Source: a virus. Taken from it: a DNA stretch of 64,000 nt. Of the stretch, positions 4,648 to 64,000 are shown piece after piece. Within the stretch, counting starts at the first letter, position 1. Each line of letters opens with the position of its first letter. The position numbers were made by a program, and so were the translations under genes. A model generated the notes under the pieces. It saw nothing but the letters and a program-made list of their open reading frames with translations, ran no database searches and was not told the DNA's origin. The stretch lies in IMG/VR virus record IMGVR_UViG_3300031521_000009, one strand, 5' to 3'.

Positions 4648-6915
4648 TTATTGAATTGATTGTCTACTTCCAAAATTGTAATTATCATTTGGATTTGATT
4701 GTTCTTGTTTTTGTTTATCAAGCATATTGATATACTGTTCTTTTTCTCCCGGTTGAAGTTTACCGGATGTTTCAAGATTATTGATAATATTCAAACTTTT
4801 CATATATGACCTTTGAGGATCACTTTTGAAATCAATATTATTTTTTGCTTGTATATCAACAAGTCTTGCTTGTGGTGTTTTACCAACATAAACTTTATTA
4901 GTTACTTGGTCATCAATAAATCCATTCTTAGAATATTTGTTTTGAAGATTACGTGTTCTTGCTAAGTTTGTTTCACGTTGAGCATTATTCATAACAGATT
5001 CTCCACCGGCAATAAGATTACCTTCTGCCATAGCTTCTTTCTGTTTATTGATATTATACTTATTGATAGCATTACGTCCTTCCTGTGCTGCCGTAGATGG
5101 TCCCTCAGCTTGTAATGGTACTTCATATATATCTTCTCCAAATCCGAAACCAAAACCAGGTGCATCACTTACTTTCTTTATATGATTTTTTGGATTCTTT
5201 GCTAACTGAGAAATAGGTGTAAGAACAGGATTTTTACCATCTACTGCAAAAGGTAACTTAGTATCACCAGTAGCACGTACCATAGTAGTTACATAGTTCT
5301 GAACAATAGGTTGACCATTAGCATCTGTTTGAATACGTGAAAGCAAATAACCTCCTTGGTCTTTCGGTGTTTTATCAAAACGTATTGTTTTTATCAAATC
5401 AGAATTGATACCCATAATCTGCGCATTTTTATCATCGCCAAATACAACATCCGGTTTAAATGCAATACCATTAAACATAGCCATAGGAAGATTGGTAACC
5501 TTTTCTGTTTTCCCTTGTACTCCTAATTCTGGGAATAATGAATTTTCAAGAACCTTACGTTCATCACCAGTAATCTTACTACTATAAACTGTTGGGTTAT
5601 TAAAGTTCAACATACCATCTTTAGGATTCTCAGTAAAGAAACTACCGGTAGTTGGATTAGTAGGTTTAGAATAGATAATATCAATTGCTGAAATAGCATT
5701 TTTATCTTCCGCTTCATCATGTTTAAGTAATTCGGAAATACCAGATTTATTACTAGAATTAAAATCACGTAATCCTTTAGTATCATTTGCAGCAGTAGCG
5801 TAAACATAACGTTGTGCTTCTGTCATAATAGCATCAGCTAATCGTTTTTGTTCTGCTAAATTTTTATCACGAGCTTCTACATCTGATGTAGGTATTCGTT
5901 TTGCTTGTTGCTTAAGCAATTCAATACTTGCAACAACTTGCTCACCACTAGCACGAGTATAATCATTCTTAGTAATAGGTCTGCCCTTTGCATCTTTAGC
6001 AACTGATGTGGTACCTGTAGGAACTATTAAAGTACCATTTAATGCTGAGCTCATAGCATAAGCACGCGCATCTTCCGGTAAGTTTTGCCACATACTACTA
6101 GCAGCACTTTTCATATTATTATAGTTATCTGAACGTGACCAGTCCCAACTTCTTAAACCATCATCTTTATTACCAGCATAAGCCATTTGTTTAGCTGAAG
6201 CAGTATCTATTCTACCTTTAATCTCTTTACTAAAATCAAGTGAGTTCATCATCTTTAATGATGGGTCTAATGTATGACTAGGAGCAATGCCACCAGTACC
6301 ATCAGGAGTAATGCCAGCATCCCATGAGTTACGTTCTTGAAGAGTATTGTAACTATGAAGTTTTACTGCATTACGACCACTAGGTGTTTTACTAAAGTCT
6401 AAAGCAAATGGTCTATCCAATTGTAAGAAGTCCTCAGCACTTTGAGCCTTACCTAAATTTGGATTAGTAACAGCTATTTCTTGTCCAATACCTTTTTTAT
6501 TTATTTCAGTATTTAAACCTTCCCATTGAGATTTAGCAAACTTAGCTTGTTGTTCTGCAACTCCAAATTGTGATTTCTTTTGAAACAAATCTTGCAACTC
6601 AGCATCATAAGCAGTTTCATATTGTTTTAGTTTCTCTGGATCAGATTCATTCTTTATCTTTTCAGTATAAATACTTGGAAGCATATTGATACGATTAGTA
6701 ATTTGATTACGATAATCATATAATGCTTTTGTATGACCAGGTAATAGTTCTTCCATCTTATCATCACTTGCTGCTTTAGGAGTAGAAGTTCTTGCTCTAC
6801 TGGCTTTATTACCCTCATTAGCTAATAAGATACGTGGGTCAAGAGATATACCGGGACCTGTTTGATTCTGTGCCGCATATCCAACCGGATTAATATTGTT
6901 TCCCCATATTGACAT
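4648..6915 (-). CDS. Putative virion cargo (internal/ejected) protein, 755 aa
   Basis: Long ORF between the muzzle and the giant cargo gene; position matches crAss-like cargo genes. Confidence 0.6.
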   Translation of the reverse strand: MSIWGNNINPVGYAAQNQTGPGISLDPRILLANEGNKASRARTSTPKAASDDKMEELLPGHTKALYDYRNQITNRINMLPSIYTEKIKNESDPEKLKQYETAYDAELQDLFQKKSQFGVAEQQAKFAKSQWEGLNTEINKKGIGQEIAVTNPNLGKAQSAEDFLQLDRPFALDFSKTPSGRNAVKLHSYNTLQERNSWDAGITPDGTGGIAPSHTLDPSLKMMNSLDFSKEIKGRIDTASAKQMAYAGNKDDGLRSWDWSRSDNYNNMKSAASSMWQNLPEDARAYAMSSALNGTLIVPTGTTSVAKDAKGRPITKNDYTRASGEQVVASIELLKQQAKRIPTSDVEARDKNLAEQKRLADAIMTEAQRYVYATAANDTKGLRDFNSSNKSGISELLKHDEAEDKNAISAIDIIYSKPTNPTTGSFFTENPKDGMLNFNNPTVYSSKITGDERKVLENSLFPELGVQGKTEKVTNLPMAMFNGIAFKPDVVFGDDKNAQIMGINSDLIKTIRFDKTPKDQGGYLLSRIQTDANGQPIVQNYVTTMVRATGDTKLPFAVDGKNPVLTPISQLAKNPKNHIKKVSDAPGFGFGFGEDIYEVPLQAEGPSTAAQEGRNAINKYNINKQKEAMAEGNLIAGGESVMNNAQRETNLARTRNLQNKYSKNGFIDDQVTNKVYVGKTPQARLVDIQAKNNIDFKSDPQRSYMKSLNIINNLETSGKLQPGEKEQYINMLDKQKQEQSNPNDNYNFGSRQSIQ

Positions 6916-40258: not shown

Positions 40259-40339
40259 GGGAGTGTAGCTCATCAGATAGAGTTTACTGCATAGAAATAT
40301 GTGTTGTAAGGGTCGGAGGTTTAAGTCCTTCCACTCCCA
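40259..40339 (+). ncRNA. tRNA-like RNA with abnormal anticodon arm (no assignable anticodon)
   Basis: Acceptor GGGAGTG/CACTCCC-A; D arm GCTC/GAGT; T arm GGAGG-TTTAAGT-CCTTC; anticodon arm TTAC/GTAA closes TGCATA-GAAA-TATGTG. Confidence 0.7.
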
Positions 40340-40364
40340 CAAATATTAATAAAAACTATTTATA

Positions 40365-40658
40365 ATGAGAAATTTGAATAAGATTGTTTCTATTGTATTA
40401 AAAATGATAGAGAATAATGAATGCGAAGATTTGACTAATGAAGAATTAGAACAAATATCAATACTCATTCATAGACCTACCACAATGGGTCGAGAAGATG
40501 CTGCTAAGTTTATGGGAGTATCTTTGACTAGGTTTCATGAATTAAAAGATTATGGTATAATACCTGAACCACGTAAAGTAAAAGGATTTCGTGAAAAATC
40601 ATATTATGTTTCAGATTTAAAAAAAGCATTAGAATTAAAGAAACAACTAAAGCTATAA
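40365..40658 (+). CDS. Excisionase/AlpA-like HTH DNA-binding protein, 97 aa
   Basis: MGREDAAKFMGVSLTRFHELKDYGIIPEPRKVKGFREKSYYVSDL. Confidence 0.8.
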   Translation: MRNLNKIVSIVLKMIENNECEDLTNEELEQISILIHRPTTMGREDAAKFMGVSLTRFHELKDYGIIPEPRKVKGFREKSYYVSDLKKALELKKQLKL

Positions 40659-42668: not shown

Positions 42669-42819
42669 GGTCTATTAGTGTAAATGACGCACAATCTGGA
42701 ATGAAACAATCAAGCAACTAGTGATCACTAGTGACAGACATTTCAAGGTAATTCTTGACTGAATAGCATGTTAGTAATTCAATTTAAGGATAGAGAGGGT
42801 TTGATTCCCTTATAGATCA
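42669..42819 (+). ncRNA. tRNA-framed RNA with a 102-nt structured insert replacing the anticodon arm
   Basis: Acceptor GGTCTAT/ATAGATC-A; D arm GTG-TAAATGACG-CAC; T arm GAGGG-TTTGATT-CCCTT. Confidence 0.65.
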
Positions 42820-42845
42820 CAAACTAATAATCAAATAACAAATTT

Positions 42846-54735: not shown

Positions 54736-55342
54736 CATGAAAGACGTAAATATTGAAAATGCTTTTGTAGTATTGAAAGGTAATCACATGTCAAATGACA
54801 TTGAGCTTGGTAGTATCTTTCTCGAATGTAAATGCGAACGGTTCAAATTGAAAGTTCTTTCTTATGAACGTAAATTTAAAGATGGGAATACTATTTTTGA
54901 ACTCGATATTGAAAATCCACATGATTTCAAAATGGCTGTATTTATCAATAATGAAGTGTCATTGAGTTATTGGACAAAGAAACGTTCTGATGTGTTTATC
55001 ATTGGTATGATGCCAGTTATCTTAGCTGATGGAACAATTCGATATTTTGTATTCAATCAGTTTGCAGAAGAAAAATTGTACATTGCTCCAGGTAATCATT
55101 TAGGAATGGAACTAACAGTAGTAAAATACAAAAGTTGTACTGCTACATTTGGTGAAGGACCTGGTTGGGCGACTATCTACAGTATCGATAGCCATCAAGA
55201 AGGACAAGGACATGCTCAGGAACTACTTATTCAAGCAAAAGCGTATTATTCCTTACTTGATAAAGAAATGGCTTCTACAGTAGCTTTAAACCCTACTGTG
55301 GAGCATATCTTGGAAAAACTTTCTATTAAAGAATACAAATAA
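54728..55342 (+). CDS. Protein with C-terminal GNAT-like acetyltransferase motif, 204 aa
   Basis: IYSIDSHQEGQGHAQELL resembles the GNAT acetyl-CoA-binding motif A. Confidence 0.5.
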   Translation: MNSMKDVNIENAFVVLKGNHMSNDIELGSIFLECKCERFKLKVLSYERKFKDGNTIFELDIENPHDFKMAVFINNEVSLSYWTKKRSDVFIIGMMPVILADGTIRYFVFNQFAEEKLYIAPGNHLGMELTVVKYKSCTATFGEGPGWATIYSIDSHQEGQGHAQELLIQAKAYYSLLDKEMASTVALNPTVEHILEKLSIKEYK

Positions 55343-55387
55343 TTAGCGAATTGTTTGGTAAACTTATAGAATTGTCTTTTCTTTGCA

Positions 55388-55483
55388 GTGTTCAATCGGA
55401 GTGACTATCGAATGAACATTCGGTAGTACCCTTTTGATACACTTAAGACCCCGAAGGAATGTCACTCCCTTTCGGGGTTTTTT
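55388..55483 (+). promoter_or_regulatory. Two-hairpin leader with loop-loop complementarity ending in an intrinsic terminator (attenuator-like)
   Basis: Hairpin 1 GTGTTCA/TGAACAT carries GGAGTGAC; the loop of terminator AGACCCCGAAGG/CTTTCGGGGTTT carries GTCACTCC. Confidence 0.65.
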
Positions 55484-55497
55484 GCGTTTAATAATTA

Positions 55498-56283
55498 ATG
55501 AATATGCGTACAATAAAATTATCTATATCACAAGCTAAATTGGCAGTACAATCTAAGAGTAGATTGGAAGCTTTAGCATTTGCTATTCAGATAAAAGGTA
55601 TGTATGTTTCATCTTGTCTAATGGATTGCTCTTCTAGTGATAAAAGTATAAAATACTCTAAGCTAAAAGAGCAATTTCATTTAGGACATGACAAGATTAA
55701 GAGAATAATAAAAAATGGTATTGAATATAAATATATTCGATTTGAAAATGGAAAATTAATAGCTAATAAAATGTATTCTGAAAAAGAATTAATTATTCGT
55801 CTTGATTTCAATTCAAAAGAATCTCTTTATAACAATAATCAGATAAAATCTCTTATTCAAAAAACAGTTATTATTGACCATATCAATAAAATTTCATTTA
55901 TCAATGATACAATATATACGGTGAAGAATTGTAAAGTTTCTTATAAACAAAGAAAAACAGCAATGAAAAAATTATATAAGTATGCAGTGAATATTCCAAA
56001 TGAATTAATAGGATTGAGTTATGATAGCATTTCTAAAATTGCAAATGTAAATAAAAACAAAGCCATTTTTTATATCAAAGAGTTAGTGAGTAAAAATGTA
56101 ATAAATAAGTCAGTAAATCTTATTTTTACTGGTATTAAAGCTAAATCAAAAGATAAATCAATTCAAATTGAATATAAGAAAAATGGTAATAGTGGCTATT
56201 TAAGAAAAATAAATTATATGTATTACATACAAAGCAGTAATATATATTCTATATCCAATTTTAGTTTAATTAAGTATGCATGA
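55498..56283 (+). CDS. Putative replication initiator / winged-HTH DNA-binding protein, 261 aa
   Basis: Very basic; two HTH-like segments (YSKLKEQFHLGHDKIKRII; LSYDSISKIANVNKNKAIFYIKEL). Confidence 0.45.
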   Translation: MNMRTIKLSISQAKLAVQSKSRLEALAFAIQIKGMYVSSCLMDCSSSDKSIKYSKLKEQFHLGHDKIKRIIKNGIEYKYIRFENGKLIANKMYSEKELIIRLDFNSKESLYNNNQIKSLIQKTVIIDHINKISFINDTIYTVKNCKVSYKQRKTAMKKLYKYAVNIPNELIGLSYDSISKIANVNKNKAIFYIKELVSKNVINKSVNLIFTGIKAKSKDKSIQIEYKKNGNSGYLRKINYMYYIQSSNIYSISNFSLIKYA

Positions 56284-56327
56284 TTTCTTCACCCAAATAT
56301 ATGTGTAATAAAATAGGAGAGTAATAT

Positions 56328-56648
56328 ATGTCAATGAATAAAGAATTAATTGATAAATATGTTTTCAATTCAATTAAATATGGTTCTAAAGCAGAACAAC
56401 TTTTATTGAGTAAATTAATGATGTCTAATATTGATTTTAAATATAAATATAAAGTGCCTAATGATATAACTTATTACATGGCAAATTTTTATATTCCACA
56501 TAAAAATATAATTATCAATATTAGTCTTTCTATAAATGTCAAACAAGCAGAAATTGTCAAAGATGATTTTTGTAAAAGCAAAGGTTTTAAAGTCATTCGT
56601 ATTTTAGAATCAAACATTTCCTCATTTGATATTTCCTCTGTGCTATAA
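56328..56648 (+). CDS. DUF559/Vsr-like endonuclease-fold protein, apparently catalytically degenerate, 106 aa
   Basis: SKAEQLL...FKYKY..YYMANFYIP...IIINIS...DDFCKSKGFKVIRI. Confidence 0.65.
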   Translation: MSMNKELIDKYVFNSIKYGSKAEQLLLSKLMMSNIDFKYKYKVPNDITYYMANFYIPHKNIIINISLSINVKQAEIVKDDFCKSKGFKVIRILESNISSFDISSVL

Positions 56649-56678
56649 CTGCACAAACAAATCTATATTTATTTTATT

Positions 56679-58349
56679 ATGAATGAAATTGTTCAAATTC
56701 CATTAGTGTATATTGTTGCGTCCAAGTTAAACCCTCGGAAAACAATAAACCAAGACTCTATAATTGAGTTATCACAAAGTATTAAATCAGTAGGGTTGTT
56801 GCAGCCTATTACTGTACGTAAAATTGAAGAAGATGATTATCCAACAAATGATGTTTATGAAGTAATCATGGGTTATCGTCGTTATTGTGCATGTAGTCAT
56901 CTTGGAATGACAACAATGCCATGTATCATTGTAGAAATGGATGATGAAGAAGTACTGGATGCAATGATCATTGAGAACTTACAACGCCAGGATATCGAAC
57001 CTATGGATGAAGCGCGGGCATTTGCTAACCTCAATAACAAAGGTTGGACTGGTGAAGATATTGCTGTAAAGGTTGGTAAGCCGGTTCTATTTGTAATGCA
57101 TAGAATACGCTTGCTTGAGCTTATTGCTGAGTTTGTAAAAATGTTTGATGAAAATGAATTATCCATTTCTCATGCTTATGAATTATGTAAGCTTGACAAA
57201 GATATTCAGTTAGATATTTACAAAACTCGTTATAGCGAAGAAGCCAGTGATTACTATCGGTGGAATGATCTTAATCTAAAAGATTTAAAATCGAAAATAC
57301 AAAATCTTGCAAAGAACTTAGACAATGCTTCTTTTAGCTTGGCTGAGTGTATTACTTGTCAGTTTTGTACTTCTATCCATGGTTCTTTATTCCCGGACTA
57401 CAAAATCAATTCTTGTACTAATAGCTTCTGTTATGATGATAAAATCTTTGAACATCGTATGAACAATATTATTCTTGCACATGAAGAAGATACTACTATT
57501 ATGATTCGTTCATTAGGTACAAGTAATCGGGTTCTTGATAAGCTGAAAGAATTGCATATACCAGTTGTAGTGTTTAGTACCGAAGAATACGATTTTGAGC
57601 ATGATAAGAGCGATGATCTATCCTTTCATGATAAAATGGTCAAGAAAGGATTTGAAGCTGTTTACGGGCTTGATACATGGTCTGGTGGTGATAAGATGTT
57701 TTATATAAAAGCAAAGATTACCAAAAAAGATATTGCTGCTGCAGGAACAGTTCATCCGGAACTTATAAAGCTTGACAAAGACCTTGTTCGTAAAGAGGAA
57801 ATCAAAGAGGAAAAGATTAATGCTGATCTTAGAAGTCTTATTTCCGGTAGTAACTATCGTGAGATAAGTACACCACTACTTCCTATTGAAGAAACTGCTT
57901 TTATGGCTGTCATATTCTATATGGCTTCTAACAGTAAATTAAAAGAGATAAGAACAAAATTCAAGAAAGATTTGTCTTACATGGAAAACATACAAAACAT
58001 GTTACCCGAGGATATTATTACATTGAAACGCTGCTTTATCAAACAATGTATTGTTGGAACAGAAGTAACTCATGATGCAGATGTACAGAATATCCTTTCA
58101 AACATTTCTAATGTCTTTTACTCAGATAAGTTTGGGGAGATTGTCGAAGAACATACGGCTACATGTAACAAACGTAAGGATCGTATTGCTATTCGTAAAC
58201 AAGTCATTCTTGATGAATTGAATCCAGTAAAGAAAGAACTTGTTGAAAAGAAAACAGTATCATTAGCTGATGCTGATGCACAGGTACCTTATATCCCTAA
58301 GCAAAAAGAAGAAAATGAATATGTCAAATTTGGTAACATTGGAGAATAA
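56679..58349 (+). CDS. parB: ParB/RepB/Spo0J family protein, 556 aa
   Basis: NPRKT...ELSQSIKSVGLLQPITVR...YEVIMGYRRY...IIENLQRQDI, HTH; Cys-rich CxxC region. Confidence 0.88.
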   Translation: MNEIVQIPLVYIVASKLNPRKTINQDSIIELSQSIKSVGLLQPITVRKIEEDDYPTNDVYEVIMGYRRYCACSHLGMTTMPCIIVEMDDEEVLDAMIIENLQRQDIEPMDEARAFANLNNKGWTGEDIAVKVGKPVLFVMHRIRLLELIAEFVKMFDENELSISHAYELCKLDKDIQLDIYKTRYSEEASDYYRWNDLNLKDLKSKIQNLAKNLDNASFSLAECITCQFCTSIHGSLFPDYKINSCTNSFCYDDKIFEHRMNNIILAHEEDTTIMIRSLGTSNRVLDKLKELHIPVVVFSTEEYDFEHDKSDDLSFHDKMVKKGFEAVYGLDTWSGGDKMFYIKAKITKKDIAAAGTVHPELIKLDKDLVRKEEIKEEKINADLRSLISGSNYREISTPLLPIEETAFMAVIFYMASNSKLKEIRTKFKKDLSYMENIQNMLPEDIITLKRCFIKQCIVGTEVTHDADVQNILSNISNVFYSDKFGEIVEEHTATCNKRKDRIAIRKQVILDELNPVKKELVEKKTVSLADADAQVPYIPKQKEENEYVKFGNIGE

Positions 58350-59298
58350 TCAATTAGATAAGGATTTAATAAAAGAACACAATGAATTAATCAAATCAAA
58401 AAGCAAATCTCCTAGGATATATGAAATTCGAATGGCCATTTTTAAAAAATATAAATGTACATGGGATGATGAAACCGGATTAATTTATTTAGACCTTGAT
58501 TATAATCCAATTAAAGAAAGTTCAAACAAAAAAGAACAAGTAAAAAAACAAATAAGTGAAATTTCTATGAATGCAAAAAACATATTATTACAATGTACAG
58601 TAGTACAAAATCGCGTATATCTACCGGACGAACAAATCGACCGTAAGCTTTATATGGAAGTTGCAAAAGCGTTAGAACTTATCGGTGGTAAATGGACTGG
58701 TGGTAAAATAAAGGCCTTTGTGTTTGCTGAGGACCCAACAGATTTATTAGCCGAGATAGCTAGTGGTGAAAAACGTAATCTAAAGAAAGAACATCAATTC
58801 TTTGGTACTCCGCCAGAACTTGCTGACAGACTTATAGAACTTGCTCAATTAAACAACTTTGATCGTGTTCTAGAGCCTAGTGCCGGACAAGGTGCTATCG
58901 TTGAAGCAATGCAACGCAAATGGCATAATATCGTGCCTACATGTGTTGAGAATATGGGACTCAATTCTATTGTTCTTACAAAGAAACAGATTACCCATTT
59001 CTTTCAAGACTTTCTTACTTCAGAATGTAGTAAGCCATTTGATAAGGTTATCGCTAATCCACCATTCACAAAGAATCAGGATATTGATCATATCTATAAA
59101 ATGGTAGAAGTCTGTAAACCCGGGGGAATAGTGGTATCATGTGCTTCTAATCATTGGAGAGAATCAAAGAACAAGAAAGAAACTGAGTTCAGAGCTTTTC
59201 TTGATGGTATGGGTGCTGTTATCGAAGAAATACCAGCCGGTACCTTTAAAGAAAGTGGAACTATGATTGCAGCTTGTATTGTAATCATTCATGTATGA
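58321..59298 (+). CDS. N6-adenine DNA methyltransferase-like protein, 325 aa
   Basis: QFFGTP, motif I VLEPSAGQGAI, motif IV NPPF, FKESGT. Confidence 0.85.
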   Translation: MSNLVTLENNQLDKDLIKEHNELIKSKSKSPRIYEIRMAIFKKYKCTWDDETGLIYLDLDYNPIKESSNKKEQVKKQISEISMNAKNILLQCTVVQNRVYLPDEQIDRKLYMEVAKALELIGGKWTGGKIKAFVFAEDPTDLLAEIASGEKRNLKKEHQFFGTPPELADRLIELAQLNNFDRVLEPSAGQGAIVEAMQRKWHNIVPTCVENMGLNSIVLTKKQITHFFQDFLTSECSKPFDKVIANPPFTKNQDIDHIYKMVEVCKPGGIVVSCASNHWRESKNKKETEFRAFLDGMGAVIEEIPAGTFKESGTMIAACIVIIHV

Positions 59299-59504
59299 CA
59301 AACGATAGTACCTTGAATAATGACCTATTTGCTATGTATCAAGAGCAAGAAGCCCTTGAATTTAGTAGATGGGTCAATTCGGTAGAGAAGCATGTAAGTA
59401 CGCTTAAAACGAAGCTATGTAAGTCATGCAACAAAAACAAATTAGAAGTAGTAAGTATGTATAAAGCAGAATGTACAAATTGTCTAACATTAAACTCATT
59501 TTAA
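59295..59504 (+). CDS. Zn-ribbon small protein, 69 aa
   Basis: CKSC...CTNC; start MTNDS. Confidence 0.6.
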   Translation: MTNDSTLNNDLFAMYQEQEALEFSRWVNSVEKHVSTLKTKLCKSCNKNKLEVVSMYKAECTNCLTLNSF

Positions 59505-59505
59505 A

Positions 59506-59769
59506 ATGAAAAGAGAAAATATAAAACGTGCTTCTGAATTAAGTTCTGAAATAACTGGACTTGAACAATTGCTAGAAGATATAAAACTTCAAGAAAAAAC
59601 CAAAATTGTAAGTGGATTTTCAATTATGATTCCAGCAAATAGAAATTCATCTGGAGTTTCTATTACTAGATATATATCAAAAGAAATGAGAGATATATTA
59701 GTAATTCTAGCTAAAAATGAAGTAGAAAGAATTATTGCTGAAAAAGAAAAAGAAATCGAAACACTTTAA
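59506..59769 (+). CDS. Hypothetical protein, 87 aa
   Basis: Coiled-coil termini. Confidence 0.65.
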   Translation: MKRENIKRASELSSEITGLEQLLEDIKLQEKTKIVSGFSIMIPANRNSSGVSITRYISKEMRDILVILAKNEVERIIAEKEKEIETL

Positions 59770-59779
59770 ATAACACAAC

Positions 59780-60064
59780 ATGTCACAAGAAATAGAAAAG
59801 TTTATATCATTAATTAGAGATTCGTTTGTTGGTTCTCAGCAAGTATATACAAATGGAAGTTGTTATCATTTTTATCTTATACTTAAAAATATATATCCAA
59901 GTGCAAAATGTTGGTATGATGAAAGTCATATTATTACAGAAATTGATGGTAAGTTTTATGACATTACTGGAGAAGTACAAAAAAATTCAAATCTTTTAAT
60001 TATGGATCATCCAGCTCATTATAGTTTAAAAAATCCATTTAATATTTACAATATACAAAAATAA
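59780..60064 (+). CDS. Hypothetical protein with papain/transglutaminase-like Cys-His-Asp signature, 94 aa
   Basis: YTNGSCYHF...HIITEIDGKFYDITG. Confidence 0.6.
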   Translation: MSQEIEKFISLIRDSFVGSQQVYTNGSCYHFYLILKNIYPSAKCWYDESHIITEIDGKFYDITGEVQKNSNLLIMDHPAHYSLKNPFNIYNIQK

Positions 60065-60068
60065 AAAT

Positions 60069-61544
60069 ATGTCAGAAATTAAAATTCATATCAAGAATTA
60101 CAAACTTCTCAAAGAAGGAGAATGGGATTTATCAAATGGTACTATCTTCTTCGCACAAGGCGGAAACAAAAAAGGTAAGACTTCTTTCTTGAATCTTATC
60201 CAAGCACTCATGGAAGTAAAAGATACTACTGTCAATCCAGTAACTTTTGGTGAGAAAGAAGGATTTGCTACCGGTACAATACCTGGCGCTGATGGTTTAC
60301 AATACCAATTTCGTTACGACTTTAATATTGATGGTAAGAACAAATTTCAGTTCATTGCTCCAGACAATAAAGTTGTCAAAGGAATTACTGAAATGCGCGC
60401 TATCTTCAATTATACTCATTTTACATTGGAAGAGTTCTTTGAATGGAGTAAAACAGAACCGGGCCGTGCTAAACAACGTGCTATCTTCATGAACTTACTT
60501 TCAGAAAAAGAACGTGAAGAGATAATGAAAATAGATGCTGAGATTCATCCTACAAAAGGAACAATGATCGATTCGCGTAAAGAATTGAATAAGTCAGTTG
60601 ACTTCTTGAAAAAGAGTATTGACAATATCGTATTCAATCCGGAACAACAAAAACTTATTACTGATGCTCCGGCTATTCAAAAGTTGTTTACTGAACTTAC
60701 TGCTCGTAAAGAAGAGATTGATGAAACAATTAAAGGATTCGATACTTATCAAGTGAAGTTGGATGCAGAAAATGAAAAACTGGATCCACTAAAAAAATCA
60801 CATAATAAGCAAGTGGAAAGTCTTACTAACTCCATTCGTTTTGCCAAAGAAGAAATTGACCGTCTTACCAAAGAATTGGCAGCCGATGAAAAGAAACTGG
60901 AAACTGAGAATGCTGAGTACGAAACTTCTGAAAAAGCAATCACTGCAGCAATCACTGAATTGAATACTAAGTTCGATGTGAAAGTACTTGAAGCTGCAAA
61001 ATTAGAATTAGATGGTGATGGTACTGAAAAGAATATTGGTCTTGCCAAACGATTAGAGATTGGCCAGACAAAAATCAATCAGTATAATCAATTGGATGTA
61101 TTAGTAAAACAAAAAGCAAAGAATGAAGAAGATCATAAAAAGAAGGAAAGTGAAGTTAGTGAGTTGGACGAGAAGATTACGACTCTCCGCACCAAGAAAA
61201 AGGAAATCATCAAAAACAGTCAGAACATGCCGGTTGGTTGGTCGATTGATGATGATTATGTTACTATCGATAATATTCCTTTTCTGGAAACTGATATTTG
61301 TAAGTCGGAAGCGACTGCTGCTATTGCTCAATTGATGATGCGCGTAAATAAGGCTCCATTGATGCTTATGGGCGATGCTGAGGCCTTGGGATATGAAGTA
61401 CTCAATAAGCTTGAGGAAACAGCTAAGAGTCTTGGTAAGGTAATGCTATTCGCTGAACATGTTCGTTCTGCTGATGAAATGCAGTTGGTTGGTTATGATC
61501 AAATCGACCATGAAGTAAAGAAAGAAGATAAAGAATTATTTTAA
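60069..61544 (+). CDS. SMC/Rad50-like ATPase with long coiled coil, 491 aa
   Basis: IHIKNYK, Walker A GGNKKGKTS, coiled coil, C-terminal Walker B-like LMLMGDAE. Confidence 0.8.
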   Translation: MSEIKIHIKNYKLLKEGEWDLSNGTIFFAQGGNKKGKTSFLNLIQALMEVKDTTVNPVTFGEKEGFATGTIPGADGLQYQFRYDFNIDGKNKFQFIAPDNKVVKGITEMRAIFNYTHFTLEEFFEWSKTEPGRAKQRAIFMNLLSEKEREEIMKIDAEIHPTKGTMIDSRKELNKSVDFLKKSIDNIVFNPEQQKLITDAPAIQKLFTELTARKEEIDETIKGFDTYQVKLDAENEKLDPLKKSHNKQVESLTNSIRFAKEEIDRLTKELAADEKKLETENAEYETSEKAITAAITELNTKFDVKVLEAAKLELDGDGTEKNIGLAKRLEIGQTKINQYNQLDVLVKQKAKNEEDHKKKESEVSELDEKITTLRTKKKEIIKNSQNMPVGWSIDDDYVTIDNIPFLETDICKSEATAAIAQLMMRVNKAPLMLMGDAEALGYEVLNKLEETAKSLGKVMLFAEHVRSADEMQLVGYDQIDHEVKKEDKELF

Positions 61545-61545
61545 T

Positions 61546-61579
61546 AACTAGAACCTTCTCACTGGTATAGGTAAAGTGA
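61546..61579 (+). promoter_or_regulatory. Conserved leader motif, copy 1 (AACTAnAACCT-n-GGTATAGGTAA), pseudoknot-like
   Basis: ACCT/AGGT stem; loop TCACT pairs with 3' AGTGA; ends 9 nt before ATG 61589. Confidence 0.6.
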
Positions 61580-61588
61580 TATTCTATT

Positions 61589-61957
61589 ATGAGTGAAAAT
61601 ACTGGTTCAAGACCTGCAAGTATTGCAGAAGTTATTGCTCCTATTTGCTATCAAGCAAATAAAGCATTTTGCGAAAGTTATGGTGATTATTCTCAAAAAG
61701 ATTGGTATCAAGCCGATGATTGGCAAAAACAAAGTGCTATTAAAGGTGTACAATTTCGTATTGAAAATCCGGATGCTGGACATGATGCACAGCATAATTC
61801 ATGGATGGCTGAAAAAGTTGCTGATGGATGGGTATATGGAGAAAGTAAAAATGCAGAAGCAAAAACTCATTCATGTATTGTTTCTTTCGAACAATTACCT
61901 ATTTTCCAACAAAAGAAGGATGCATTATTCTGTGCTATTGTAGATTCTTTGAAATAA
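61589..61957 (+). CDS. Stand-alone RyR-domain protein, 122 aa
   Basis: HNSWMAEKVADGWVYG...KTHSCIVSFEQLP..QQKKD. Confidence 0.85.
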   Translation: MSENTGSRPASIAEVIAPICYQANKAFCESYGDYSQKDWYQADDWQKQSAIKGVQFRIENPDAGHDAQHNSWMAEKVADGWVYGESKNAEAKTHSCIVSFEQLPIFQQKKDALFCAIVDSLK

Positions 61958-61990
61958 AACTAAAACCTAGTGCGGTATAGGTAAGCCAAT
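61958..61990 (+). promoter_or_regulatory. Conserved leader motif, copy 2
   Basis: AACTAAAACCTAGTGCGGTATAGGTAAGCC upstream of ATG 61999. Confidence 0.6.
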
Positions 61991-61998
61991 CAATAATT

Positions 61999-62325
61999 AT
62001 GGATTTTATACAAGCTATCAACACTTATCCAATGATTCAAAGAATTGGATGGAATGGTAACGGACTATTTGTATTTCAACAAATACCTTCTGAAATACCA
62101 ATTTTTGTTGTCCTAAAAATGCAATCATTACCTGAAGCAGTAAAAGATGAATTTGCACGTCGTTTTGAAGTTCCAATGACAAAAGAAGAAGCAAAACCAT
62201 TTTTGTCTATTCGTTACAACAATCAATTAGCAATAGTTGATAAGGAAAACAATATCAATGGATGGGCACCTTCTGTTTCTGATGCATTGGCCGAGGATTG
62301 GATTGGATATATACCGGAGGTTTAA
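61999..62325 (+). CDS. tad2: DUF2829 / Tad2-family anti-defence sponge protein, 108 aa
   Basis: MDFIQAI...RIGWNGNGLFV...GWAPSVSDALAEDW. Confidence 0.82.
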   Translation: MDFIQAINTYPMIQRIGWNGNGLFVFQQIPSEIPIFVVLKMQSLPEAVKDEFARRFEVPMTKEEAKPFLSIRYNNQLAIVDKENNINGWAPSVSDALAEDWIGYIPEV

Positions 62326-62326
62326 A

Positions 62327-62692
62327 ATGGGAAAAGTATCAACAATTGATACCAAACGCAATCTTTGTGGTAATTGTAAAAGCAGCTACCCTGATTGCAC
62401 TGGTCAGCCGGAATTTGGCGATAATGTCGGAAATAATAATGTTATCCGATGTAAGAAGTATGTAAAGAAAAAAACAAATGTTGTTCGCGTATCAGTAGGT
62501 GAAGAGTATTTTGTTTATATTTTGAAAAATCAAAATGTTTCTATGAATGATTTCATTTCAAGAAAAAGAGTAGAAACAAACAACACTACAGATAATCTGT
62601 ATTATGAAGTTGGAAACTATTTTCTGACAGAGGGAGATTGCAAATCAGAGATTGAACGAGTAACAAAATTGAAACGTAATGGCACAAGGTAA
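62327..62692 (+). CDS. Hypothetical protein with N-terminal Cys cluster, 121 aa
   Basis: NLCGNCKSSYPDC...NVIRC; GNYFLT C-terminal motif. Confidence 0.65.
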   Translation: MGKVSTIDTKRNLCGNCKSSYPDCTGQPEFGDNVGNNNVIRCKKYVKKKTNVVRVSVGEEYFVYILKNQNVSMNDFISRKRVETNNTTDNLYYEVGNYFLTEGDCKSEIERVTKLKRNGTR

Positions 62693-63302
62693 ATTAATCA
62701 GTTTCGTACCACTGATGAAAAATGGCGTACAAGATACATATAGTGGAAGTAATGGTATGCTTTATAAGTTTACTGTTACTCTTGATAATGCCGGTACACA
62801 AGTAACCGGAACAGCAAATAGTAGCAAACAACAACCATCATGGAAGATTGGTGAAGAATATACTTATGAAGTAGCAATACAAGGAAACTATACCAATATC
62901 AAAAATATGAAGTCTATAAATCAGGCTGGTGGTTTTGGTGGCAGTGGTGCTCGTGTTCCTAATCCTAGCTTTGTAGTACAGAAATGTCTTGAAGCTTCAT
63001 TGGAATGTACTTTCAAATTCTTTGAACTTAATCCGGATGTGTACAAAAGTCAAGCTGCAGAAGATGGTGTATTGAATTTGTTCTATACATTCACATTAAA
63101 AGGTGATGAACAACAACGATGGATGAATATTGCCGGACTTCGCTTTGCCTTACAAAAGATGCAAGCGAATGGTATGTTTGATAAAGCAGAAGGAGTAACA
63201 CTTACTGCGTGGACTATTGAAAAGGCTAAAACTATTGCAGCTTCTATGTCCTCAGTAGTAAAAGCTCAAGTAGAATTTGAAAAGGCTAATCCACCCAAAT
63301 AA
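62679..63302 (+). CDS. Putative OB-fold ssDNA-binding protein, 207 aa
   Basis: YKFTVTLDN...GTANS...WKIGEEYTYEV...NIK followed by a Gly-rich linker. Confidence 0.55.
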   Translation: MAQGKLISFVPLMKNGVQDTYSGSNGMLYKFTVTLDNAGTQVTGTANSSKQQPSWKIGEEYTYEVAIQGNYTNIKNMKSINQAGGFGGSGARVPNPSFVVQKCLEASLECTFKFFELNPDVYKSQAAEDGVLNLFYTFTLKGDEQQRWMNIAGLRFALQKMQANGMFDKAEGVTLTAWTIEKAKTIAASMSSVVKAQVEFEKANPPK

Positions 63303-63305
63303 TTT

Positions 63306-63452
63306 ATGCCAGATAGATATTCAATTAAAAAGAATAAAGAGAATGGATTATTTAATGTTTATTTTGGAACAATGTATTGTTTTACTTATGATACTTATCA
63401 AGAAGCAAAAGACCATATTCAAAATATGAAAAAACGATATAAAAATGAGTAA
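63306..63452 (+). CDS. Hypothetical protein, 48 aa
   Basis: MPDRYSIKKNKENGLFNVYFG...; fills the gap. Confidence 0.5.
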   Translation: MPDRYSIKKNKENGLFNVYFGTMYCFTYDTYQEAKDHIQNMKKRYKNE

Positions 63453-64000
63453 GACATATATCAATCAGTCATTAATAAAAAAGTTCTTCTACAAAGGAGA
63501 AAAACGTGATTACTGTGCTATGGCCATAAAGGCTAATACTATTGATAAAACAGTAAGTCGGGAATCACTATCAATGACATGTGGTAATTATTTTGAAACA
63601 CAATGTCTGGGTGCTTCTATTGGTGGCAAGAAAACACTTGATTTGCCAAGAAAGAAACTTACTGCTAAGCAAATTCTTGCCGGTCAAACAATAGGTGATA
63701 AAAAAATTGATCAGATACGTATTGACCAGCAAGTGATGATGTTCAACAAACTCAAAACTGAATATCAGATACCAATAGAGAAAGAGATGAATACCCAAGT
63801 CGGTGTAAAGAAAATATGGAGTAAGAATGACAATATTATCTTACAAGGTGAGATTGATATATTCCCTGCTTCTATTGCATTACCGACACGTGGTTTACGA
63901 CTTTGTGCTATTGATTTAAAGCTTACTGGTACATTCTCTGACTATGGTGAGTTCTGTTGGGGTTCTCCAACTAATTTAGACGGCATACAAGGCAAGATGT
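63445..64000 (+). CDS. PD-(D/E)xK exonuclease (RecE/Cas4-like), truncated by the window edge
   Basis: MSKTYINQSLIKKF...GNYFE...LQGEIDI...IDLKLT...W...Q; no stop before 64000. Confidence 0.75.
   Translation, partial: MSKTYINQSLIKKFFYKGEKRDYCAMAIKANTIDKTVSRESLSMTCGNYFETQCLGASIGGKKTLDLPRKKLTAKQILAGQTIGDKKIDQIRIDQQVMMFNKLKTEYQIPIEKEMNTQVGVKKIWSKNDNIILQGEIDIFPASIALPTRGLRLCAIDLKLTGTFSDYGEFCWGSPTNLDGIQGKM

Follow-up and report, generated by a model that had tools for sequence, protein, structure and literature searches.

Near the end of a stretch of viral DNA of 64,000 nucleotides (IMG/VR record IMGVR_UViG_3300031521_000009; the whole stretch is called the window hereafter), a gene for a RyR-domain protein is followed by a gene for a Tad2-like protein, and the short gap before each of them carries the same motif. 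This study investigated what this motif is, how it folds, which genes it accompanies in related phages, and at which step of gene expression it may act. The first-pass annotation had described two leader copies with a pseudoknot-like arrangement, and both were found in the window exactly as described. The 11-mer GGTATAGGTAA occurred exactly twice in the 64 kb, at 61564 and 61974, both times in a leader gap. When one mismatch at most was allowed, five sites were found against 1.0 expected, and the other three were located on the minus strand inside coding sequence. Looser matches were no commoner than chance predicts and were likewise in minus-strand coding DNA. The box AACTARAACCT was also confined to the leader gaps of the RyR and Tad2-like genes.

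The same annotation had not seen the motif before any other gene of the window, and our searches agreed. A covariance model found just the two copies, and neither this model (next best match, 20 bits, E = 0.43) nor a descriptor scan revealed a third copy in the window. In L124, a near-identical 20-kb locus that reaches approximately 8 kb beyond the window end, the covariance model likewise matched just the two copies. Each gap in the window starts directly 3' of the stop codon of a co-directional upstream gene, and the distance from the structured part to the ATG is 9 nt in copy 1 and 12 nt in copy 2 (Table 1). The plus-strand gene block otherwise has short A/T-rich gaps, in which Shine-Dalgarno sequences are mostly absent. 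RNA-library coverage of the stretch consisted of a single contig (62284-62434), which is silent on transcript ends; the RNA-labelled sequencing runs yielded scattered contigs that derive mostly from relatives and are probably DNA.

Table 1. Positions of the two leaders, their structural parts, and the adjoining genes in the window.
Feature	Position	Strand	Context or pairing partner	Basis
Backbone gene, 491 aa, Walker-A and coiled-coil ATPase-like	60069..61544	+	cassettes inserted after it	phrog_1499
Leader copy 1	61545..61588	+	entire gap from the 491-aa ATPase-like gene (stop 61542-61544) to the RyR gene	covariance model, 67.7 bits
Copy 1, A-rich 5' box AACTAGA	61546..61552	+	family consensus ACUARAA before S1	alignments
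Copy 1, S1 5' arm ACCT	61553..61556	+	61569-61572	
Copy 1, S2 5' arm TCACT	61559..61563	+	61575-61579	
Copy 1, loop L2 GGTAT, conserved (R)GUAU	61564..61568	+		alignment columns invariant or near-invariant
Copy 1, S1 3' arm AGGT	61569..61572	+	61553-61556	
Copy 1, S2 3' arm AGTGA	61575..61579	+	61559-61563	
Copy 1, A/U-rich spacer before ATG, 9 nt	61580..61588	+		9-12 nt in 20/20 parsed instances
RyR-domain gene, 122 aa	61589..61957	+	cargo of cassette 1	PF02026, E 6e-9
Leader copy 2	61958..61998	+	entire gap from the RyR gene to the Tad2-like gene	covariance model, 58.9 bits
Copy 2, S1 5' arm ACCTA, 5-bp variant	61965..61969	+	TAGGT, 61978-61982	
Copy 2, residual S2 5' arm GC, 2 bp	61972..61973	+		L151 version: 3 bp, GGC/GCC
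Copy 2, S1 3' arm TAGGT	61978..61982	+	61965-61969	
Copy 2, residual S2 3' arm GC	61985..61986	+		structural parse
Tad2-like gene, 108 aa	61999..62325	+	cargo of cassette 2	PF11195, E 4e-10

Fold of the leader

The elements of the leader follow one order among the 20 instances that we parsed: an A-rich box, the 5' arm of helix S1, (A)CC(U), loop L1 of 0-3 nt, the 5' arm of helix S2 with 4-5 nt, loop L2 with the sequence (R)GUAU, the S1 3' arm AGG(U), loop L3 of 1-3 nt, the S2 3' arm, the spacer, and the AUG. The spacer is A/U-rich and measures 9-12 nt in every one of the 20. L2 rarely reads GCUU, GUGU, or GUAC, and its length of 4-5 nt is unusual among classical H-type pseudoknots. The invariant core GGUAU-AGGU-AA proposed earlier turned out to be true within this phage only; the part that stays constant across relatives is G-Y-R-Y-AGG, mostly (R)GUAUAGG.

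The S2 helix is established. Its columns were paired in 98.4% of the cells among 14 sequences and in 97.7% among 20 distinct sequences, two-sided changes occurred in all five pairs, and at least 10 different stem sequences were observed (UCACU/AGUGA, ACACU/AGUGU, ACGAU/AUCGU, ACGGU/ACCGU, AUGGU/ACCGU, GUGGU/ACCAC, UCGGA/UCCGA, CGAC/GUCG, UGGU/ACCA, and GGC/GCC). The compensatory change that had been noticed between the two window copies in the stem flanking the loop thus belongs to a helix that covaries across at least 10 versions in the relatives. The covariation score was reached by none of 500 shuffles, a figure in which independence is overstated because many of the sequences are close relatives, and sliding the partner columns by 1-3 positions reduced the pairing to 14-45%. 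RNAalifold independently predicted the same helix. In one relative (L147), the sense strand has a U.G wobble at one S2 pair, where the opposite strand would have a C.A mismatch.

The pseudoknot-forming helix S1 is likely but thinly supported, because its support consists of conservation and one compensatory event only. The earlier annotation had proposed an ACCT/AGGT stem at this place. Its core of two C-G pairs held, being paired in 20/20 sequences and showing one clean double change in L143 (AUCU/AGAU against ACCU/AGGU, that is, C-G to U-A), whereas its outer pairs did not, being unpaired in 6-10 of the 20. A wastewater contig with a loose end at 61996 hints at another version of S1, AAC/GUU. 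S1 measures 4-5 bp, through an extra A-U pair, in the leaders in which S2 has only 2-3 bp (copy 2, L129, and L151b); this relation looks like a stability trade-off between the two helices. Minimum free energies of single sequences ranged from -3 to -9.5 kcal/mol, S2 was not always chosen in these predictions, and each helix is weak alone. A candidate outer helix, P0, between the A-rich 5' box and the U-rich spacer, was 67% paired with one lone covarying cell, and this pairing is probably an effect of composition. The leader was identical to that of L131 at 84 of 85 nt and the flanks were 92.5% identical, revealing that the leader is better conserved than the flanking coding DNA.

Cargo genes and cassette structure

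The comparison of upstream regions of Tad2 and RyR genes that the first-pass annotation had proposed revealed a covarying family in sense orientation at a fixed distance from the ATG. Approximately 16 more distinct versions were found in related metagenomic phages, all of them sense-oriented and 9-12 nt 5' of an ATG. The cargo of these leaders comprises Tad2-like, Tad3, and RyR genes and small genes without an assigned family (93, 57, and 37 aa). The proposed link to anti-defence genes was strengthened by L151, in which a 278-aa gene of the Tad3 family (PF25185, E 1.4e-21), a family of Thoeris inhibitors, bears the leader and shares the slot with Tad2. Tad3 has been reported to bind ThsB directly (PMC13728456). 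The earlier restriction to sponges is too narrow, since Tad3 and the 93-, 57-, and 37-aa genes carry the leader too.

The relatives that share the phage backbone have the gene order ParB, methylase, YunG-like, ATPase-like of 484-502 aa, and Tad2, and their Tad2 gene is preceded by a leader of this kind. Downstream of the ATPase-like gene, the slot is occupied by Tad2 alone in some of them, by RyR and Tad2 in the window and in L131-L134, and by a 65-aa ORF followed by the motif and Tad2 in L141 and L259. The leader stays with Tad2 in L141 rather than with the upstream backbone gene. A second copy was found in L143 and L259, 3' of Tad2 and 5' of a gene of 93/94 aa, the two proteins being 52% identical. 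Every motif-bearing cargo gene in these backbone relatives has its own leader copy.

The leader also moves with its gene into unrelated neighbourhoods. It precedes a 172-aa Tad2-like gene 3' of an HU gene (L178), a 117-aa Tad2-like gene 3' of a Q-rich 292-aa gene (L176), and a 57-aa ORF (L275). On a 129-kb contig (L121), it precedes an RyR homologue and, separately, a 37-aa hydrophobic ORF 3' of GroES.

The window DNA was present in many peat metagenomes, and such metagenomes also supplied most of the 52 contigs that encode the exact Tad2-like protein. Among genome assemblies, the closest Tad2 homologues were those of Bacteroidota. A descriptor that required an ATG 7-14 nt from a complete pseudoknot returned 17 distinct matches in approximately 2 Mb of fetched phage DNA, 16 of which were family members, and no match on the reversed sequences of the same DNA. 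Most Tad2 and RyR homologues elsewhere lack the leader (at least 110 Tad2 loci and 80 RyR loci checked). A model search of 30 IMG/VR and 7 genome-assembly Tad2 loci and of 80 IMG/VR RyR loci revealed no new strong members except L121/L321 and L275. The exact pattern of AACCT, 3-9 nt, and GGTATAGGTAA was found at more than 113 IMG/VR loci, nearly all of them chance matches in coding DNA; after filtering for S2 pairing, L106 alone was left, which is roughly the chance expectation. BLAST of the region against GenBank phages yielded distant RyR coding matches only and no relatives. Among the IMG/VR queries, the backbone ATPase gene returned one truncated contig and Tad3 returned nothing.

Four relatives (L129, L130, L135, and L136) have flanks 90-95% identical to the window and lack the RyR gene. 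Their single leader consists of TAACTAGAACCT followed by AGTGCGGTATAGGTAAGCC and is a hybrid, with its 5' part from window copy 1 and its 3' part from copy 2. The same junction, of 61545 with 61958, was seen in a contig of run X22, which skips the RyR gene. The breakpoints of this presence and absence are therefore inside the motif, as in a mobile cassette of the PeSL type. The lack of the RyR gene together with a single hybrid motif in these relatives indicates that each gene travels as a cassette of motif plus ORF, and such a unit is portable because the motif fills the whole intergenic gap. Recombination between motif copies would add or remove cassettes.

Known classes and models of action

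We compared the leader with known classes of elements. A cmscan with Rfam 15 (E up to 10) of window positions 60500-63000 and 61530-62010 and of L143 positions 4940-5400 gave no match overlapping the leader. The Bacteroidota promoter (-7 TAnnTTTG, -33 TTTG) was absent in and near both gaps, the nearest TAnnTTTG being at 58127 and 62966. No plus-strand sigma-70 promoter (TTGACA, 16-18 nt, TATAAT) was found at the motif, and the count of sigma-70-like sites in the region matched that of shuffles (47 versus 45.9). No intrinsic terminator was found at the motif either; the sole terminator-like site in 55000-64000 was at 55464-55478. A terminator would have a G+C-rich stem, a short loop, and a U tract, whereas the 4-5 pairs of S2 are mixed or mostly A-U and its loop measures 11 nt. 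With no host-type promoter or terminator at the motif and the nearest upstream terminator-like site so far away, the motif is inside a long operon.

Several elements of other kinds were also considered and rejected. A readthrough or frameshift stimulator would be expected 5-9 nt after a leaky stop or slippery site, which the 7-8 nt observed after the stop would suit, but the frame is closed immediately by another stop (TAA TAA at 61542-61547; TAA AAC TAA at 61955-61963). The recoding reading is also disfavoured by the position of the motif after unrelated upstream genes. Sequestration of a Shine-Dalgarno sequence, in which ACCU would mimic the anti-Shine-Dalgarno and hide AGGU, does not fit an AGG at 16-19 nt from the AUG or the AGAU of L143. 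Sequestration is further disfavoured by the absence of a Shine-Dalgarno sequence from most genes of the phage. A CsrA-type GGA loop site was rejected because half of the copies carry GGU rather than GGA, and a palindromic repressor operator because the arms differ between copies in one genome and are free to vary while pairing. A full-text literature search found no paper on an RNA motif before Tad2/DUF2829 or other phage anti-defence genes. Small cis-acting leader pseudoknots are a known kind of element; no catalogue lists the present family with its sequence or its exclusive association with counter-defence cassettes that can be swapped.

We propose, with slightly better than even confidence, that the element acts in cis as an RNA pseudoknot bordering the ribosome-binding region, where it sets or gates initiation. 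The copies are all directly 3' of the stop codon of a co-directional gene, and none heads a transcription unit. Together with the strict sense orientation and the constant distance of 9-12 nt from the AUG, this operon-internal position points to a structured RNA in the translation initiation region. The active form would thus be RNA rather than DNA, and the action would be on translation. A DNA hairpin would give identical Watson-Crick covariation; the evidence specific to RNA consists of one wobble and the fixed spacing to the AUG.

In the proposed mechanism, a small structured mRNA element would be located directly 5' of the ribosome-binding stretch of each cassette gene, within a long co-directional operon. 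S2 would form a 5-bp hairpin with an 11-nt loop, and AGG(U) of the loop would pair back to ACC(U) 5' of the hairpin as S1. The predicted result is a compact H-type pseudoknot of approximately 28 nt, in which the unpaired (R)GUAU and the linkers of 1-3 nt are constant. Because the 3' edge of the fold is 9-12 nt before the AUG and most phage genes lack a Shine-Dalgarno sequence, the fold would be placed at the mRNA exit side of the initiating 30S subunit, where it may set or gate translation initiation of the downstream gene. The Bacteroidota ribosome has been described as not using Shine-Dalgarno pairing (PMC7797042). Two modes of action are conceivable: the fold may be a self-contained module that insulates initiation from its context, so that the A/U-rich spacer is left free irrespective of the upstream sequence, or a trans factor (ribosome, protein, or small molecule) may bind the fold by recognising the constant bases of the loop.

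Two known leader elements resemble the proposed pseudoknot. The operator in the gene 32 leader of phages T4 and RB69 acts on translation through a trans-acting protein. Like the element proposed here, it is an H-type pseudoknot of small size in the 5' leader of a phage message, and the A/U-rich sequence between it and the AUG is unstructured. However, the gene 32 operator serves one gene and responds to the product of that gene, whereas the present leader is common to at least six unrelated cargo families and is just 9-12 nt from the AUG. The preQ1-I riboswitch aptamer (RF00522) is the smallest H-type pseudoknot riboswitch that adjoins a ribosome-binding site. Both it and the leader measure approximately 30 nt, have a 5-bp hairpin whose 11-nt loop pairs with a flanking strand and an A-rich flank, and are located directly before the initiation region. 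In contrast to preQ1-I, in which the flanking strand is 3' of the hairpin, the strand is 5' in the leader; the two share no sequence likeness, and their contexts are queuosine and phage anti-defence, respectively.

Because compensating mutations preserve its base pairs and no catalogued RNA family matches it, the leader is a good candidate for a new element in the control of anti-defence genes of phages. Little is known of how phages control the amount and timing of counter-defence proteins, and here counter-defence cassettes that are otherwise unrelated have one RNA fold in common, which accompanies them from one phage backbone to another. If the leader controls translation, it would constitute a dedicated anti-defence expression module in hosts without Shine-Dalgarno-led initiation, and it could be used as a portable expression part for Bacteroidota. 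As a marker, the leader makes the RyR-domain protein, the 93-aa family, and the 57- and 37-aa ORFs priority candidates for immune inhibitors.

Covarying stems around a constant loop are also what a structure-read promoter would display, and early production is expected for anti-defence genes. The leader could accordingly be a structured DNA hairpin promoter with a conserved single-stranded loop, read by a putative virion RNA polymerase that the phage would inject, with transcription of the counter-defence genes starting immediately on entry, in parallel to the virion polymerase of phage N4. A promoter had been named earlier as the alternative to an RNA element; the host-type form of it is ruled out by the sequence, and we regard the structured form as unlikely. 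The two copies per genome are both in a tight co-directional operon and never head a gene block. Neither S1 pairing nor a constant distance of 9-12 nt to the AUG would be expected of a promoter, the U.G wobble is located on the sense strand, and a start after the hairpin would leave a leader of less than 10 nt. The hairpins of phage N4 have stems of 5-7 bp and 3-nt loops, whereas a 5-bp stem with an 11-nt loop makes a poor cruciform. As far as the sequence of the leader reveals, it resembles the N4 hairpin promoters in covarying stems and conserved bases, as expected of structure-dependent recognition. The N4 hairpins differ in their 3-nt loop, in their place at the head of early operons, and in being recognised on the template strand, whereas the leader has an 11-nt loop, an operon-internal site, and a sense-strand wobble; on the basis of its loop, we rejected membership in the N4 class. 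The virion polymerases of crAss-like phages transcribe early genes, their promoters are undescribed, and no common motif was found in phi14:2 (bioRxiv 10.1101/2020.03.07.982082). The giant ORFs near the window had no match in PHROG. If the structured promoter were nevertheless the correct reading, a promoter of a crAss-type virion polymerase would have been described for the first time.

We consider it just as improbable that the leader is an element of RNA processing or stability, that is, a cleavage mark for a host or phage endoribonuclease or a protective 5' structure that remains after cleavage at the A-rich box. The level or timing of the cassette mRNA would then be uncoupled from the rest of the operon, and T4 RegB, which acts on early messages, would be the model. 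The structural evidence for a translational element applies equally here; in addition, the motif is between cistrons of a long operon and a conserved A-rich single-stranded box is directly 5' of the fold. However, processing needs no fixed distance to the AUG, yet 9-12 nt were observed in all copies, and no nuclease candidate is known.

A ligand-sensing riboswitch, which the first-pass annotation had raised as a possibility and which is a special case of the translational element, is very unlikely in our judgement. The pseudoknot would bind a TIR/Thoeris-linked molecule (a gcADPR isomer, ADPR, NAD+, or a relative) and switch translation, and this candidate aptamer would tune the translation of the Tad2, Tad3, RyR-domain, and small genes to the state of host immune signalling. 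In size and topology it is comparable with the smallest riboswitch aptamers, the constant unpaired (R)GUAU and AGG could form a pocket, and three cargo families (Tad2-like, Tad3, and RyR) are Thoeris-related or sited among such genes. Nevertheless, no expression platform and no mutually exclusive alternative helix were recognisable (P0 being 67% paired), the leader has no likeness to models of NAD+ or other riboswitches, and the cargo also includes the 37-, 57-, and 93-aa genes of no assigned family. Sponges, moreover, must precede the rise of the signal, which argues against signal-driven induction. A riboswitch of this kind would be the first found to read an immune second messenger.

The least probable of the readings weighed here is that the motif is a DNA-level recombination module, a repeat of approximately 40 nt kept for the swapping of accessory genes without its own role in expression. 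The presence and absence of RyR between genomes 90-95% identical, the hybrid leader of L129, the junction in X22, and the different cargos in the same slot of relatives are all in agreement with it. However, recombination needs identity and not pairing, and the two copies per genome always differ in S2 yet stay paired; the fixed ATG spacing and the strict sense orientation are also left unexplained. The exchange of cassettes more probably results from the repeat than explains it. A precedent is the PeSL of T4-type phages, a short conserved intergenic stem-loop motif flanking small non-essential genes (PMC2839356, PMC4122927). We rejected the leader as a PeSL, because PeSLs hold a strong early promoter of the sigma-70 type and an efficient terminator hairpin and the leader has neither; it also differs from them in its conserved loop and its second, pseudoknot-forming pairing. 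The two are alike in that recombination between copies accounts for gene gain and loss between close relatives.

Cargo of the backbone slot and its flanking gene

The cargo that follows the 491-aa backbone gene was compared among relatives of the window phage, and the features discussed here are located in the table below. In locus L151, the slot occupied in the window by the RyR gene was filled by a Tad3-family gene that carried its own copy of the leader, the pseudoknot-like element found shortly before the ATG of such genes. Tad3 homologues were also identified in L137 and L143, where they lay three genes further downstream and had no leader. The two genes of the 93/94-aa family, whose proteins are 52% identical, were both preceded by the leader with differing stems. 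The family had no match in Pfam or PHROG, and its ESM Atlas matches were confined to unnamed viral clusters. Its association with Tad2 and the leader makes it a candidate new counter-defence gene.

Alignment of the backbone protein (alignment A3) revealed an N-terminal region with a Walker-A box, a long variable coiled coil in the middle, and a conserved C-terminus that includes DAE. The sole database match was phrog_1499, a family of unknown function; judged by eye from its sequence, the protein resembles an SMC/Rad50-like ATPase.

Features of the window and of related loci
Feature	Location	Details
Backbone gene	window:60069-61544	491 aa
Tad3-family gene	L151:2120-2956	278 aa; PF25185, E 1.4e-21
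93/94-aa protein family	L143:5386-5667; L259:4393-4677	3' of Tad2
Different leader common to RyR homologues	L116:2950-2997; L117:2910-2961; L118:1225-1273	other IMG/VR phages
Gap 3' of Tad2	L127:2586-2718; L137:2560-2677; L260:1855-1985	119-133 nt; C-type relatives
Motif look-alike	L106:6037-6097, minus strand	AACCU uu GCGGU gGUAUAGGUAA AACCGC; 23 bits

Other structured elements near RyR and Tad2

The different leader shared by the RyR homologues comprised a short covarying hairpin (stems AGCC/GGCU, AGUC/GACU, and GCC/GGC) followed by UUYGUAAAAC or UUAAUUAAAAAC, approximately 15-25 nt upstream of the ATG; in L117, a box resembling that of this leader was again present 3' of the gene. In the gap after Tad2 lay an A-rich run and a long hairpin with perfect pairing, TTCGTAAGA...TCTTACGAA, possibly forming a terminator or a different kind of structured element.

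Outlying matches to the motif

The L106 phage uses Shine-Dalgarno sequences, and its look-alike was located 23 nt upstream of a holin-like gene; a second related hairpin, approximately 150 nt upstream, preceded a Lys/Gly-rich 16-aa ORF. The look-alike may be a distant member of the motif or a chance match. In a wastewater contig from sequencing run X21, with its loose end at window position 61996, the hairpin helix S2 of the leader (TCACT/AGTGA) was identical to that of copy 1, before the window RyR gene. Within the 30 letters visible of this contig, the loop read GTAAAGTTA, and in front stood ...AC G TC, a sequence that might provide an AAC/GUU version of the S1 stem.

Accessory genes and genome form

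More small accessory genes, varying in presence among near-identical relatives, were observed at window positions 59506-60064 and 63303-63441. L129 lacked two of them, one of 87 aa and one YunG-like, and a 48-aa ORF (window 63306-63452) was missing from L131 and L135. The longest contig bearing the window's Tad2 protein was 172,319 bases, and the record probably consists of two copies of an 86-kb genome joined head to tail. The segments 40300-40365 and 42790-42845, each directly preceding a gene (at 40365 and 42846, respectively), carry T-arm-like sequences (GGTTTAAGTCC / GGTTTGATTCC) and look like candidate tRNA 3' halves.
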